This document shows positions 23,725 through 29,114 of a stretch of 29,114 bases of DNA, in pieces. Each line of letters begins with the position of its first letter. The stretch's first letter is position 1. This stretch comes from Balneolales bacterium (GTDB lineage: Bacteria > Bacteroidota > Rhodothermia > Balneolales > Balneolaceae). The notes under the pieces are model-generated. The model did no database searches, was not told the origin of the DNA, and saw only the letters and a program-made list of their open reading frames with translations. The translations under genes and the position numbers were made by a program. The stretch spans positions 1-29,114 of the forward strand of contig JAKSCW010000292.1 of the NCBI GenBank assembly GCA_022360375.1, written 5' to 3'.

Positions 23725-25503
23725 ATGAGCAAAAAAGAGGAAACAGAACAAAGGGGAATAAAGAGTTTACGCGAAACTCTGGTCAAAATTTTCGCTCTCA
23801 GTAAGCCATACCGGGTTCGGTTTTTTAGCGCTACTGGATTGGTGCTCATTGCTTCAGCTATTTGGCTGGCGGTACCACTTGGGTTGCGCGAATTGCTGGA
23901 TGCCGTTTTTGAACAAGGGAATGAAGGATTGCTAAATTTACTGGCAATCGGTCTTATGCTCATGTTTATTGTACAAGCCGGGTTCTCGTTTATGGGTAAT
24001 TACTTCCTGGAGTGGGTGGGAGAGCGAGTAATTACAGACCTGCGAAAAAAGGTATATGAGCATCTTCACCGGTTAGGGTTCCGGTTTTTTGCTGAACGCC
24101 GTTTGGGAGAAATTACTTCGCGGTTAACCAACGATGTTAGCTCCATTCGAACGGCGTTAACCGATTCTTTACCTCAATTGCTTACGATCACTTTTTCATT
24201 AATAGGTTCGGTTTCTTTAATGGTGGTGCTGAACTGGCGTCTCAGCTTGGTAATCTTTGCAACGGTGCCATTTGTAACTATTGCAACCCGCTATTTCGGC
24301 CAAAAAATCCGAAAGCTTTCCCGTGGAATTCAGGATGAATTGGCGGATTCAACGGCGGTGGCAGAAGATGCTTTAGGAGCCATTCGTTTAGTAAAGGCGT
24401 TTGTGAGGGAACATTATGAAGTAAGCCGTTATAGTTCTGCTATTGAAAAGCTTTTTATTACTGCGAGGAGGAAAGTAGTACTTACTCAATTGTTTTGGTC
24501 TGGAGTGGGTATTATGTTCTTAAGCACTTTGGTAGTAATTTTCTGGTACGGAGGGAAAGAAGTGCTGGCTGATCGGCTAACAGCAGGTGATTTGGTAGCT
24601 TTCATTATTTATGCACTGAATATTTCGCGCTCTATCGGGCAAACTTCGAGGCTATATACTGCTGTAAATTCAGCGGCAGGCGCCTCTGAAAGGATTTTTG
24701 AAATCCTGGATGAAATCCCTGAAATACAAGATCGGGACGACGCAAGGCAGATTGAAAACATGGAGGGAGCTATCTCGTTCGAAAAACTGACTTTTTCTTA
24801 CGAAGACGACCGGGTTATTCTGAATAATATATCTTTTGAAGCAGCACCCGGGCAAACGATTGCATTGGTTGGGCCCAGTGGTGCCGGGAAAACCACGCTT
24901 CTTAATTTGATTCCAAGATTTTACGATCCCCAAAAAGGGGGTATACTGGTGGATGGGATAGATATAAGGGAGGTACAGGTGAAGAGTTTGCGGGAACACA
25001 TTTCTATTGTTCCGCAGGAAGTTCATTTGTTTGGAAGCAGTATTCGGGAAAACATTTTGTATGGCCGCCTGGATGCAACCGACGAAGAAATCATTCAAGC
25101 TGCGAAGGATGCAAACGCGCATGAATTCATATCGGAAATACCGGAAGGATATGATGCCTTGATTGGAGAAAAAGGGGTGAAACTGAGTGGAGGTCAGCGC
25201 CAAAGGGTAGCCATTGCCCGTGCTATTCTGAAGGATCCTAAAATCCTTCTACTCGATGAAGCTACTTCTTCACTGGATTCAGAATCGGAAGCCCTGGTAC
25301 AGGAAGCACTTGAACGATTGATGCGGGCAAGAACCACTTTTGTAATTGCCCATCGGCTTTCAACGGTTCAACATGCCGACCGAATTCTGGTTATCGATAA
25401 AGGAGAAATTGTGGAAGACGGAACCCACCAGGAACTGCTGGCAAAAGGTGGCTTATACAGCCATTTATATGGATTGCAATTCCGGGACCTGGATACGGTT
25501 TAA
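23725..25503 (+). CDS. MsbA-like ABC exporter (fused TMD-NBD)
   Basis: ABC membrane domain plus Walker A GPSGAGKT, signature LSGGQRQR, Walker B ILLLDE, D-loop SSLD and IAHRLST. Substrate not assignable. Confidence 0.93.
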   Translation: MSKKEETEQRGIKSLRETLVKIFALSKPYRVRFFSATGLVLIASAIWLAVPLGLRELLDAVFEQGNEGLLNLLAIGLMLMFIVQAGFSFMGNYFLEWVGERVITDLRKKVYEHLHRLGFRFFAERRLGEITSRLTNDVSSIRTALTDSLPQLLTITFSLIGSVSLMVVLNWRLSLVIFATVPFVTIATRYFGQKIRKLSRGIQDELADSTAVAEDALGAIRLVKAFVREHYEVSRYSSAIEKLFITARRKVVLTQLFWSGVGIMFLSTLVVIFWYGGKEVLADRLTAGDLVAFIIYALNISRSIGQTSRLYTAVNSAAGASERIFEILDEIPEIQDRDDARQIENMEGAISFEKLTFSYEDDRVILNNISFEAAPGQTIALVGPSGAGKTTLLNLIPRFYDPQKGGILVDGIDIREVQVKSLREHISIVPQEVHLFGSSIRENILYGRLDATDEEIIQAAKDANAHEFISEIPEGYDALIGEKGVKLSGGQRQRVAIARAILKDPKILLLDEATSSLDSESEALVQEALERLMRARTTFVIAHRLSTVQHADRILVIDKGEIVEDGTHQELLAKGGLYSHLYGLQFRDLDTV

Positions 25504-26645
25504 TTGTCTGTTTGGTAAGCTCCTATTACATCGCTGTAACTCATGTCATCCAATAAATTTCTGTTTTCCAGTTCAGTAAGAAATTCTACGGGCACATTAC
25601 TGGTGTACAATCCAATTATACCCGAATAGGAAAAGGTATCCAGGAAACCAGCTTCCTGAAGTTCATTCAAATAAGAAATACTCACATTACTACTATACAA
25701 CCCAATGATAGCCGAATAGCTAAATTCATCGAGGTATCCGGCCGCTTGCATTTCATCCAGGTAGCTGGTGCTCACGTTGCTGTTGTACAGTCCAATAATT
25801 GCTGAATAACTGAATTCATCGAGGTACCCGGCTGCCTGCATGCGGTCTAAGTAGCTGGTTGTTACATTACTGCTATACAACCCGATGATGGCCGAATAGC
25901 TGAATTCGTCCAGGTAACCCGCTGCCTGCATTTCATCGAGGTAACTGGTAGTAACATTACTGTTGTACAATCCAATGATTGCAGAGTAACTGAAATCATC
26001 CAAATACCCGGAGTTCTGCATCCTTTCTAAGTAGGTTAAGGTGACTCCGCCGTTGTACAGGCCAATTACAGCAGAATAGGAGAATTCGTCTAAGAATCCG
26101 GCATTATTTAGTTGTACCAAATAATCAACGGGTAGACCACTGTTATATAATCCAATAATAGCAGAGTACGAGAATTCATCCAGCAAGCCTGCTCCTTCAA
26201 TATCTTTTATGTACTGAATGGGTACGCCACTATTGTAAAAGGCCTGAACGGCTGAACCGGAAAACATATTCAGGTTTTGCTCATTGAATTGTTGCAGATA
26301 ATCCAGGTAGCCACTTTCTATTCCAGAATATTCAACTGTGGGAGGCAAAGGTACTTCAACTACGGGAGGCGAAGGGGTAGCAGGGAGGTTCACATTTGTG
26401 GAAGTTGAAGTTTCCCCAGTACCAAAACTGAATATGGAAAAAGGGCCTCCGGTTGCGACCCAAAGTGAAGCGATAATGAGAAAAATGCCGATGGCAATCA
26501 GGTTTCTTTTTGTAGTTGGTTCTTTCTCTTGTTCGGTGAAGAAAGATTCCTGATCAAGGTTTTCCGGGTTTGATTTCTCCCGAAGATATTCGTCGAGATC
26601 AAAATCAGGATCAGCATTACCTGGCCGGGTTCGTTCTTTTCTCAT
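25500..26645 (-). CDS. Uncharacterised single-pass membrane protein with 8 full 30-aa repeats (paralog A)
   Basis: N-terminal FDLDEYLREK, TM LIAIGIFLIIASLWVA, Pro-rich linker, then units of consensus FSYSAIIGLYNSNVxxSYLDEMQAAGYLDE. Confidence 0.85.
   Translation of the reverse strand: MRKERTRPGNADPDFDLDEYLREKSNPENLDQESFFTEQEKEPTTKRNLIAIGIFLIIASLWVATGGPFSIFSFGTGETSTSTNVNLPATPSPPVVEVPLPPTVEYSGIESGYLDYLQQFNEQNLNMFSGSAVQAFYNSGVPIQYIKDIEGAGLLDEFSYSAIIGLYNSGLPVDYLVQLNNAGFLDEFSYSAVIGLYNGGVTLTYLERMQNSGYLDDFSYSAIIGLYNSNVTTSYLDEMQAAGYLDEFSYSAIIGLYSSNVTTSYLDRMQAAGYLDEFSYSAIIGLYNSNVSTSYLDEMQAAGYLDEFSYSAIIGLYSSNVSISYLNELQEAGFLDTFSYSGIIGLYTSNVPVEFLTELENRNLLDDMSYSDVIGAYQTDN
25503..26264 (-). repeat. Coding tandem repeat, 90-bp/30-aa period, 8 units plus 14-aa partial unit
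   Basis: FSYSAIIG recurs every 30 residues. The central units are about 72-83% identical at DNA level by hand count. Confidence 0.92.
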
Positions 26646-27481
26646 TGGTTATCCCTCATGGTATAGAGTGAAGTAATTTGATCGGTATTCAGATCAGACA
26701 AGAGGCCGGTGTCTCTGAGTCTGCTCAAAAAAGAAATCGGTACATCCGCATTGTACAGCTGCTGAATATCTTCTCCCGAAAAAGTGTTTAGATTTCTTTC
26801 TGAGAATTCTCTTGAATATTCATCAAAGCTTAAACTATTGGGTTCGAAATCCCTTAAATCAATAGCCGCAGAAAAATCTAAATTTTCTAATTGTTCCAGA
26901 GCTTCCAATGCTTCAAGTCCTGATAAACCTTCTAATGCTTCAAAATTTTCGAGGGCTAAAAGAGCTGATTCCAGAGCCAACTCTACAGAAGATTCTGTTA
27001 ACGCTTCCAGCTCCTCAGCAAAATTTTGATTGGAATTAATGGCTAGTCCGGCATCACGAAATGCTTCATCAATTTCCTGAGCAATATTGGCTGCTTCTAA
27101 TTCGCTGTTGATTCTTTCTGCAAGGCCCTGAAGCTGTAATTCTTCATTAATAGTGCGGGCAAGCTCAGCTTCTTCTAAAGCACGTGAAACCTCTTCTGAA
27201 ATTGTGGATTCCAATTCTGAACCACTGGGGCCAATAACGGTTACAGTGGGTTCTTCATTGGCTCCAAAAAAGCTGCCTAAATTTCTCTCATTCAAAAACA
27301 ACAATGCGATCACCAAGGCTCCGGCAAGCACCATGGTACTTCGGATCCATTTGCTGCGTTCTGATTTTTTTGTTTCCGGTTCATTGTAGGGCGAGAATGT
27401 TTCTTCGCCAGATTTTTCCTTTATGTATTGATCTAAATCAAAGTTTGAGTCATGATTATAGGGTCGGTTCTTTGTAGACAT
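26642..27481 (-). CDS. Uncharacterised single-pass membrane protein with acidic helical stalk and one 30-aa repeat (paralog B)
   Basis: N-terminal FDLDQYIKEK, TM MVLAGALVIALLFL, Glu/Ala/Leu-rich stalk, then FSGEDIQQLYNADVPISFLSRLRDTGLLSD plus a partial unit. Confidence 0.82.
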   Translation of the reverse strand: MSTKNRPYNHDSNFDLDQYIKEKSGEETFSPYNEPETKKSERSKWIRSTMVLAGALVIALLFLNERNLGSFFGANEEPTVTVIGPSGSELESTISEEVSRALEEAELARTINEELQLQGLAERINSELEAANIAQEIDEAFRDAGLAINSNQNFAEELEALTESSVELALESALLALENFEALEGLSGLEALEALEQLENLDFSAAIDLRDFEPNSLSFDEYSREFSERNLNTFSGEDIQQLYNADVPISFLSRLRDTGLLSDLNTDQITSLYTMRDNQ

Positions 27482-27484
27482 ACT

Positions 27485-28702
27485 CTAATTATCTCCATCA
27501 ATTTTGTAGGCATTAATCACTGAAGAAGAGCTCATGTTATCAAGCAATCCTAAATCTCTCAATTCTTCTAAATAGCTTACAGGAACTCCATTATTATATA
27601 AGTTCGAGATAGAAGTGCCGCTATATTCGTCAGTAAGTCCCAGGTTTTTCAATGAAGTAAGATATTCGATTGGTACCTGGTTGGAATACATAGCGGCAAC
27701 ACTGGTTCCACTAAATGAATCTATAGCATCGATTTCAGAAAGGGATTGAATATACTCAAGCGGAACTCCAGCCTGGTACATAGTAACAATTGATGTTCCG
27801 CTAAAACCGTCAAGAGCCCCTGAATTTTTTATTCCAAGTAAATATTCTGCCGGTACTTGATTAGTATACAAAATGGATAGGGATGTCCCGCTAAAACTGT
27901 CTGCCATATCGGCATCTTGTAAGTTTTTGAGATACCCTATCGGAACCTGGTTGTTATACAGCTCAACGATTGAAGTACCACTTAATGCATCCATCAGCCC
28001 AATATCTCTAAGGCCTTCCAGATAGCTTAAAGGAATCTGGTTTCCATACAAGGTAGAAATAGATGTTCCACTAAAAGAATCAACCATATCACCATTCCCA
28101 AGTTGGATAATATATTCTGCAGGAACATTGTTCTGATACATAGTAACCAGGGAAGTTCCGCTGAACACATCAATATACCCGGCATCTCCGATTTGCCTTA
28201 AGTATTCTATAGGAATGTTATTCGTATAAAGTGTTTGCTGCGAGGTACTACTGAATAATTCAAGGTAACCTAACTCGTTTAAAGCCGTTAGGTATTCAGT
28301 AAATGTCATATCCAATGGAACGGCATCAGCATCTACCTGGGGTGGAGTTTCTGTGTCAAAATCGAAGTCGAAATCAAAGTCGAAATCATTTTCACCAAAT
28401 TCGAAAGTAAACGGTTCAACAACATTGGTGGAAGGTTCTACAGTAACCAGTTCTGGTTCTGCTTCATCGAAAAAATAGGAGATAATATTGTTTGGGTTCC
28501 AATCGAAGTACCAAAGAAAAGCAGCAAGAAATACGGCTACAATAACTGCGGAATTGCGCAGGAAGTAGGAGTTTCCGGGAACCTGTGATTCTTCTTCTGT
28601 AAACGAATTCGAAGCGTTTTCCCCTTGTGCTTTCTCCCTGATATATTCATCAAGGTTGAAATCATCAGAACCTTTATTTTTTCTTGTTTTTTGCCCGGCC
28701 AT
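27485..28702 (-). CDS. Uncharacterised single-pass membrane protein with (DF)n tract and 8 full 30-aa repeats (paralog C)
   Basis: N-terminal FNLDEYIREK, TM AVIVAVFLAAFLWYF, DFDFDFDFDFD, then units of consensus FSGTSIxxLYxNxVPxEYLxxLxxxGxxDx. Confidence 0.85.
   Translation of the reverse strand: MAGQKTRKNKGSDDFNLDEYIREKAQGENASNSFTEEESQVPGNSYFLRNSAVIVAVFLAAFLWYFDWNPNNIISYFFDEAEPELVTVEPSTNVVEPFTFEFGENDFDFDFDFDFDTETPPQVDADAVPLDMTFTEYLTALNELGYLELFSSTSQQTLYTNNIPIEYLRQIGDAGYIDVFSGTSLVTMYQNNVPAEYIIQLGNGDMVDSFSGTSISTLYGNQIPLSYLEGLRDIGLMDALSGTSIVELYNNQVPIGYLKNLQDADMADSFSGTSLSILYTNQVPAEYLLGIKNSGALDGFSGTSIVTMYQAGVPLEYIQSLSEIDAIDSFSGTSVAAMYSNQVPIEYLTSLKNLGLTDEYSGTSISNLYNNGVPVSYLEELRDLGLLDNMSSSSVINAYKIDGDN
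27488..28255 (-). repeat. Coding tandem repeat, 30-aa period, 8 units plus 16-aa partial unit
   Basis: SGTS (SSTS in the first unit) recurs every 30 residues from residue 150 of the ORF. Confidence 0.9.
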
Positions 28703-28707
28703 ATTTT

Positions 28708-29114
28708 TTAATTCTCTTCTTTATAAAGTTCTACAACATCAATAAAGCTCAATTCATCGTATAAGCCAATTTCTTTTAATCGATCCAGAAACTCAGTTGT
28801 TACTCCATTTTCATAGTATTCAGTAATATGCACAAAGGATAGCTCATCTAAGTAACCGGCTTCGTCTAATTGGTCCAGGTATTCCAGGGGAACGCCGTTC
28901 TGGAAAAATTCCCCAATTTCGACAAATGAAAGCCGGTCCAGGTAGCCCGCCTGGTCTAGTGTGGTTAAATAACTGAGCGGAATATTCTCATTATAGAACT
29001 CATCTATTTCAACAAAAGAAAGCCGGCCCAGGTATCCTTCTGTGTTCAATTGAACCAGGTACTCAACGGGAACTCTTGCAATGTATAATTCTCTGGCTTC
29101 AAAAGCAGAAAGGA
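28708..29114 (-). CDS. C-terminal part of a fourth 30-aa repeat protein (paralog D), 5' end outside the window
   Basis: The frame is open from the window edge: LSAFEARELYIARVPVEYLVQLNTEGYLGR, LSFVEIDEFYNENIPLSYLTTLDQAGYLDR, two more units, then LSFIDVVELYKEEN stop. The track start at 29049 is an internal TTG. Confidence 0.85.
   Translation of the reverse strand, partial: LSAFEARELYIARVPVEYLVQLNTEGYLGRLSFVEIDEFYNENIPLSYLTTLDQAGYLDRLSFVEIGEFFQNGVPLEYLDQLDEAGYLDELSFVHITEYYENGVTTEFLDRLKEIGLYDELSFIDVVELYKEEN

Follow-up and report, generated by a model that had tools for sequence, protein, structure and literature searches.

A four-gene array of membrane-anchored, acidic 30-residue repeat proteins in Balneolaceae, related to a repeat of BlaR1-like proteases

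The DNA analysed here (the window) is a whole contig of 29,114 nucleotides (nt), JAKSCW010000292.1 (C423), from a Balneolales bacterium of the family Balneolaceae, whose genome bin (GCA_022360375.1) comprises 3.08 Mb in 588 contigs and is 82% complete; DNA of the window is contained in coral and coral-reef metagenome runs. Its last part carries four genes, all on the minus strand, that encode paralogous membrane-anchored proteins built on a 30-residue helical repeat, named here A to D from 5′ to 3′. Gene A enters the window with its 3′ part, an open frame of 134 amino acids (aa) from position 28708 to the contig end at 29114. Genes B (27485–28702, 405 aa), C (26642–27481, 279 aa) and D (25500–26645, 381 aa) are complete. 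The gaps A/B, B/C and C/D are 5, 3 and −4 nt, and these open reading frame (ORF) coordinates agree with the initial annotation of the DNA, which had described four co-oriented genes so spaced.

The three complete proteins have one layout. An N-terminal tail of 44–48 aa precedes a single hydrophobic segment (Kyte-Doolittle score 1.75–2.25) with Lys or Arg residues before it, and the C-terminal part bears a net charge of −33 to −43, which places the proteins among the most acidic 1–4% of the genome's ORFs that reach 200 aa or more. In D the membrane helix (residues 49–67; 26445–26501, minus strand), with Lys/Arg on its N side and none on its C side, leads through a Pro-rich linker to eight units of the FSYSAIIGLY type (25548–26267, minus strand), each predicted to form two short helices. 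Protein B has an FD-rich and Pro-containing linker followed by eight units of the FSGTS type (27539–28258, minus strand), whereas in C a long acidic, Leu/Glu-rich helical stretch precedes one unit only (26696–26785, minus strand). Four repeat anchors are present in the fragment of A. In both D and B all seven intervals between successive anchors measure exactly 30 residues, and a half-unit cap closes all four proteins with the tails YKEEN (A), IDGDN (B), MRDNQ (C) and YQTDN (D). Hence the counts of eight, one, eight and at least four units, the caps with their KEEN, DGDN, RDNQ and QTDN endings, and the succession of N-tail, one transmembrane segment preceded by basic residues and acidic ectodomain are all as first proposed.

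Two local irregularities of composition lie in the spacers. A 12-nt tandem repeat at 28355–28388 encodes the (Phe-Asp)n run FDFDFDFDFD of the B linker, which connects the membrane helix to the first unit. The Leu/Glu-rich stretch of C (about 26867–27034) has a near three-residue period (LEALEALEQLENL...), a spacing unusual for a coiled coil, and is much longer in an orthologue from another Balneolaceae genome (L010:9072–9998).

The missing part of gene A was found on contig C315, whose first 19 nt are the last 19 nt of the window. It supplies the N-tail, the membrane helix and a Pro-rich linker, so that the joined gene codes for a protein of 283 aa that comprises five units plus the cap; beyond it, across an intergenic region of 136 nt, a GH3 gene is transcribed divergently. 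On the other side, D converges with an ABC exporter gene (23725–25503, plus strand); the two stop codons overlap by 4 nt (25500–25503) and a terminator cannot fit between them. The array therefore consists of exactly four genes bounded by the GH3 and ABC exporter genes. The initial annotation had expected it to continue beyond the window and had suggested that regulators or partners might be sought upstream; what continues is just the rest of gene A and then the GH3 gene, and no sigma factor, M56 or BlaI gene flanks the array. Since there is neither space nor signal for promoters or terminators between A, B, C and D, the four genes likely form a single operon, and their co-transcription is further suggested by the small gaps and by the constant gene order in other genera.

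Comparison with eleven related loci in nine other genomes, from several genera, showed that every family gene there has A, B, C or D as its best match and that the order A-B-C-D is constant, although the content varies (ABCD, ABD, BCD, AD or D alone). D is present at every operon examined and lies tail to tail with the ABC exporter gene at nine of the eleven; the exceptions are L024, with the exporter at a distance of about 5 kb, and L030, where the stretch showed none. A-type orthologues measure 277–316 aa. An NCBI genome of Balneolaceae (L010) and a complete congeneric genome (G052, locus L020) have the full arrangement, GH3 followed by A, B, C, D and a convergent 592-aa ABC exporter; in both, genes for NfeD, two SPFH proteins, an M23 peptidase and an ECF sigma factor come next. 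At L010:10001–11065 the D orthologue is split into ORFs of 259 and 76 aa by a frameshift or an assembly error within the repeats.

Elsewhere in the genome of the window there are two further members of the family, both cut at contig ends. One is represented by an N-terminal piece on C55; the other by a C-terminal piece on C553, which probably belongs with an N-terminal piece on C187, although a contig overlap joining the two fragments was looked for and none was found. In G052, unbroken orthologues of both stand at unrelated loci. Altogether five contig ends (C55, C553, C187, C315 and C423) fall inside family genes, which indicates that the repeats break the assembly; the unit copy numbers of this bin outside the window may thus be unreliable. 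A more distant relative of 261 aa is encoded on contig C103 (L007:1177–1962). It has a tail, a membrane helix, five units and a cap ending in SNQ, but its units are of the LRxxGVTxxY kind carried by M56 proteases and it does not have the FDLDxY motif described below. The small gene upstream of it (L007:736–1110) resembles, by eye, a CheY-type receiver.

The repeat is very regular, and its hidden Markov model (HMM) scores D, B and A with E values of 6e-96, 8e-92 and 6e-37; these values, together with the orthologues in many genomes, argue against a chance array. Six framework positions, S3, Y11, P/T16, Y19, L23 and D30, are common to all paralogs in the genome. Positions 4, 5, 6, 9 and 13, located on one face of helix 1, are near-fixed within each paralog and different between paralogs. 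Together with the four orthogroups in fixed order, this gives substance to the earlier description of the genes as a diversified set. The pressure on the individual unit is best seen in units 4–6 of D, which are 90–93% identical as protein and only 74–80% identical as DNA, with 15–16 synonymous against 2–3 non-synonymous codon differences per pair. Near-identity of the protein over diverged DNA implies that the residues of each unit are kept by selection, and so low a DNA identity rules out recent duplication or gene conversion as the source of the likeness.

The repeat domain is predicted to be an alpha/alpha solenoid of stacked antiparallel helix pairs. An AlphaFold2 model of the D ectodomain (residues 105–381), calculated with an alignment of 57 relatives, reached a mean predicted local distance difference test score (pLDDT) of 91.7 and a predicted template modelling score of 0.79, and shows 18 short helices of 9–10 residues, strictly two per unit; the single-sequence model was poor (pLDDT 48). 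The two-helix solenoid of the initial annotation, which would have fallen had the models been irregular, is thus supported by prediction. Searches for a structural precedent returned little. Foldseek comparison of the D model with the PDB and with the Swiss-Prot models gave only generic helical repeats and no solved structure below E 0.7, and a sequence-profile search of the PDB gave no match below E 0.2; the matches from the AlphaFold database clusters and from the ESM Atlas were all relatives that are uncharacterised. In an exhaustive VIA-align comparison with 48,161 chains the best score belonged to a designed alpha/alpha toroid (Z 7.8) and TAL effector/BurrH repeats followed at Z 6.5–6.8, these matches having a root mean square deviation of about 17 Å (Foldseek E about 1) and scores in a range that the tool itself rates as non-specific among helical repeats. 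These best structural neighbours resemble the window proteins in having two-helix units of 30–35 residues. However, no global superposition and no sequence similarity with them were found, and the DNA binding of those proteins takes place in the cytoplasm or nucleus.

All family members begin with the same module: a basic start, the motif FDLDxY, an acidic spacer, a K/R-N segment and the membrane helix. In D the motif region, DPDFDLDEYLREKS, is encoded at 26571–26612 (minus strand), and its counterparts lie at 28628–28669 in B and 27410–27451 in C, also on the minus strand. The Phe and Tyr of FDLDxY are invariant in 19 aligned N-termini, and most members carry LWxFDWSP at the outer end of the membrane helix. 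Within the genome of the window the module is seen solely together with these repeats; across the phylum it was found in each of the 14 genomes sampled from the family but nowhere among 86 genomes of other families. The placement of Lys and Arg before the membrane helix points to a topology with the N-terminus inside and the C-terminus outside, as had been proposed, and the tail with its motif would then be cytoplasmic. The position of the repeat in its relatives agrees with this orientation: no membrane helix is found C-terminal of the repeats, which follow either the last M56 membrane helix or a signal-peptide-like segment.

The relatives of the unit were identified with a profile (A1) of 30 columns, built from 37 units and searched against 1.84 billion representatives of 50% identity clusters. 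At E ≤ 1e-3 it matched 986 proteins, of which 344 also passed E ≤ 1e-10. Peptidase_M56, the protease domain of BlaR1, was present in 49 of the 76 longer matches, and M56/BlaR1-like proteins were matched at E values down to 1e-47. As units of the C103 type could have served as intermediates, the finding that a profile made from window-type units alone, at a cut-off of E ≤ 1e-3, still retrieves 55 of 67 M56-like proteins (best 1.4e-29, Z = 1.84e9) makes the link independent of them. In the M56 relatives an HExxH motif near residue 215–250 is followed about 100 residues on by a membrane helix and then by the repeats, with a period of mostly 29. Judged from this domain order, the repeat takes the sensor position that the penicillin sensor holds in BlaR1. 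Two M56-repeat genes were looked up, and each lies directly behind a Penicillinase_R (BlaI) gene; at one locus (L038) genes for two more repeat proteins lie downstream of the M56-repeat gene.

By profile comparison, then, the window unit is homologous to an unnamed 29-residue repeat of BlaR1-like M56 proteases, and the resemblance to GV[TP]xxY[LI] repeats noted in the initial annotation reflects a true kinship. The two consensus sequences, xFSxxxIIxLYxxxVPxxYLxxLxxxGxLD in the window and LSxxxLIxLRxxGVxxxYxxxLxxxGY in the M56-linked form, are alike. Common to both forms are two helices per unit, a location on the non-cytoplasmic side, arrays of 4–14 units and the occurrence of repeat proteins side by side. 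They differ in that the M56-linked repeat (Acidobacteriota, Planctomycetota and others), which is borne at the C-terminus of the proteases and also of exported partner proteins encoded with them, has a period of 29, is basic and carries LR, whereas the window repeat is strictly of 30 residues, acidic and carries LY. The loci differ as well. The window proteins have an N-terminal signal anchor with the family-restricted FDLDxY, they fall into four fixed orthogroups, and neither an M56 nor a BlaI/MecI (Penicillinase_R) gene occurs in the flanks of the array in the window or at the eleven related loci. In the BlaR1/MecR1–BlaI/MecI systems of Staphylococcus aureus and Bacillus licheniformis the position that the relatives' repeat occupies belongs to the penicillin-binding sensor of an M56 protease encoded behind BlaI. 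The window proteins, by contrast, lack an HExxH protease (the Pfam search found no Peptidase_M56 in A–D), a penicillin-binding domain and a repressor partner, and they are themselves unable to signal through cleavage of a repressor.

Known families offered no alternative assignment. No Pfam or NCBIfam model reached its cut-off on the four proteins and 57 relatives. The stray hits Meiosis_expr, Phage_sheath_1C, RecX, HHH_5, DUF5866 and LED_rpt all remained under their cut-offs; the last (PF20854) attained at best 20.8 bits against a curated cut-off of 59 and matched four of 57 members, with a best E value of 1.3e-4. The ESM Atlas provided a lead towards peptidoglycan binding, one cluster containing 13% PG_binding_2, and the pattern of the unit looked PG_binding_1-like, but the link failed in profile-profile comparison. 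Nothing relevant to either form of the repeat was found in the literature on the LED repeat, on M56 repeats or on Balneolaceae repeat proteins. In line with the initial annotation, which could name no family for the unit, the HMM search returned an uncharacterised family only. The designation "candidate new system" was accordingly too strong for the repeat itself, which, as the matches on BlaR1-like proteases indicate, already belongs to a large unnamed family. New is the form seen here, an acidic, protease-free, membrane-anchored arrangement with a conserved FDLDxY and four fixed orthogroups that is, on the genomes compared, confined to Balneolaceae.

Two known systems are similar in architecture. 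RsgI anti-sigma-I factors of Clostridium thermocellum also form a set of paralogs with a short conserved cytoplasmic N-terminus, one membrane helix and diversified outside domains. The window set is unlike them in that no RsgI_N domain was detected, no sigma factor gene is paired with its members, and one operon stands in place of separate sigI-rsgI pairs. TonB and TolA share with the window proteins a short cytoplasmic tail, one N-terminal membrane helix, a spacer that is Pro-rich (TonB) or long and helical (TolA, as in gene C) and a C-terminal interaction domain. Yet A–D have no TolA domain and no ExbBD or TolQR partners nearby, and the search that finds TonB_C in an M56 protein of the same genome gives no such hit in them; the SxxxH motif of the TonB-type helix is, we presume, also missing from their membrane helix.

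What the four proteins do can be approached through these features, which make a periplasmic binding or scaffold set their most likely role. With somewhat better than even confidence we regard them as membrane-tethered periplasmic binding modules, each with its own periodic surface, that have a common partner for the tail and membrane segment. In this model, A–D would be four bitopic inner-membrane proteins with a cytoplasmic tail carrying FDLDxY and one membrane helix usually ending in LWxFDWSP. Beyond the membrane, a Pro-rich or helical spacer would hold a very acidic periplasmic alpha/alpha solenoid with its half-unit cap. Each solenoid would offer a periodic surface of its own, directed at a repetitive ligand in the envelope or at the other solenoids, probably within a hetero-oligomeric set and much as the repeat-bearing sensor and partner proteins of M56 loci may do; the tail and membrane segment common to all four would contact one partner. 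Several observations weigh against this model. Some C-type orthologues have no unit at all and consist of just the N-terminal module and the acidic helical region, which fits poorly with a simple picture in which four solenoids pair up. Only 37 of 61 genomes of the family contain the repeat unit, and its absence from the other 24 implies that the system is dispensable. There is no partner gene inside the operon, the neighbouring GH3, ABC exporter and NfeD/SPFH genes suggest no clear functional link, and synteny within one family may merely reflect descent. Nor is a ligand indicated: PG_binding_1 (PF01471) gave no hmmscan hit, and hhalign of the profile A4 against five PG_binding_1 domains, a comparison made with a thin profile, returned a probability of 0.1.

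A bolder version of the binding set would have it form a Balneolaceae-specific periplasmic solenoid complex that reads a periodic polymer of the envelope or of the host and passes a signal inward, with no protease, through FDLDxY and LWxFDWSP to a partner. We consider this unlikely as matters stand; if true, the sensor repeat of BlaR1-like switches would here have given rise to a novel type of device for sensing or tethering across the membrane. The proteins might instead serve as passive tethers or spacers of the TonB/TolA kind, anchored in the inner membrane and spanning the periplasm, whose solenoids hold the peptidoglycan or the outer membrane without signalling. The layout of N-tail, membrane helix, Pro-rich linker (A, B and D) or long acidic helix (C) and C-terminal domain is in keeping with such a role, and one of the genome's own M56 proteins, which carries TonB_C at its C-terminus, indicates that the same two architectural slots are filled by the repeat and by TonB_C. 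But the domains and partners of TonB and TolA are missing from the proteins and the operon, a tether would not need so strongly conserved a cytoplasmic motif, and the repeat is found elsewhere on signalling proteases; the idea is a doubtful one, although of the remaining alternatives it ranks above detached sensor parts, and these above a cation buffer.

That A–D are detached sensor subunits, acting in trans with the BlaI/M56 switches of their own genome, is a considerably weaker candidate. It draws on the stand-alone repeat proteins co-encoded with an M56-repeat protease at L038 and on the presence in the genome of two BlaI-M56 pairs besides the M56-TonB_C protein; against it, all three M56 proteins of the genome are devoid of the repeat and lie on other contigs, and the eleven related loci offer neither M56 nor BlaI in their flanks. 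The C-terminal parts of the two pairs (L018:395–2130 and L019:1090–2650) are without a Pfam match, and the pair in L019 adjoins a Beta-lactamase-family gene (L019:3–1238). Slightly less probable again is a polyanionic or cation-binding periplasmic buffer, in which acidity and not surface would matter to a marine, coral-associated bacterium. The charge of the ectodomains and the coral and reef source of the DNA are compatible with it. However, bulk charge would require neither the identity of the units against near-saturated synonymous change nor the paralog-specific non-charged positions, and the related M56-linked repeats are basic. Finally, the contig end within a repeat gene and the other paralogs at contig ends could suggest low-complexity or repeat artefacts of metagenome assembly in place of real genes. 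This notion carries hardly any weight, being already refuted by the same four genes in complete single-contig genomes of the genus, and the open frames, the codon-level pattern of purifying selection and the confident fold model speak against it as well.

The interest of the binding set lies in the family from which its repeat derives. For the 986 clusters of this family no Pfam model, solved structure or paper was found, even though the repeat appears to be the input domain of many BlaR1-type switches from soil and marine bacteria. The Balneolaceae operon presents that domain minus the protease; its four versions, the high regularity of their units and the confidence of the fold model make it a convenient entry to the structure and the ligand of the repeat. 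Cultured relatives of Balneola would allow tests of both the cytoplasmic motif and the strictness with which each paralog's repeat surface is conserved. The operon thus offers a tractable system that could help to define a missing domain family.

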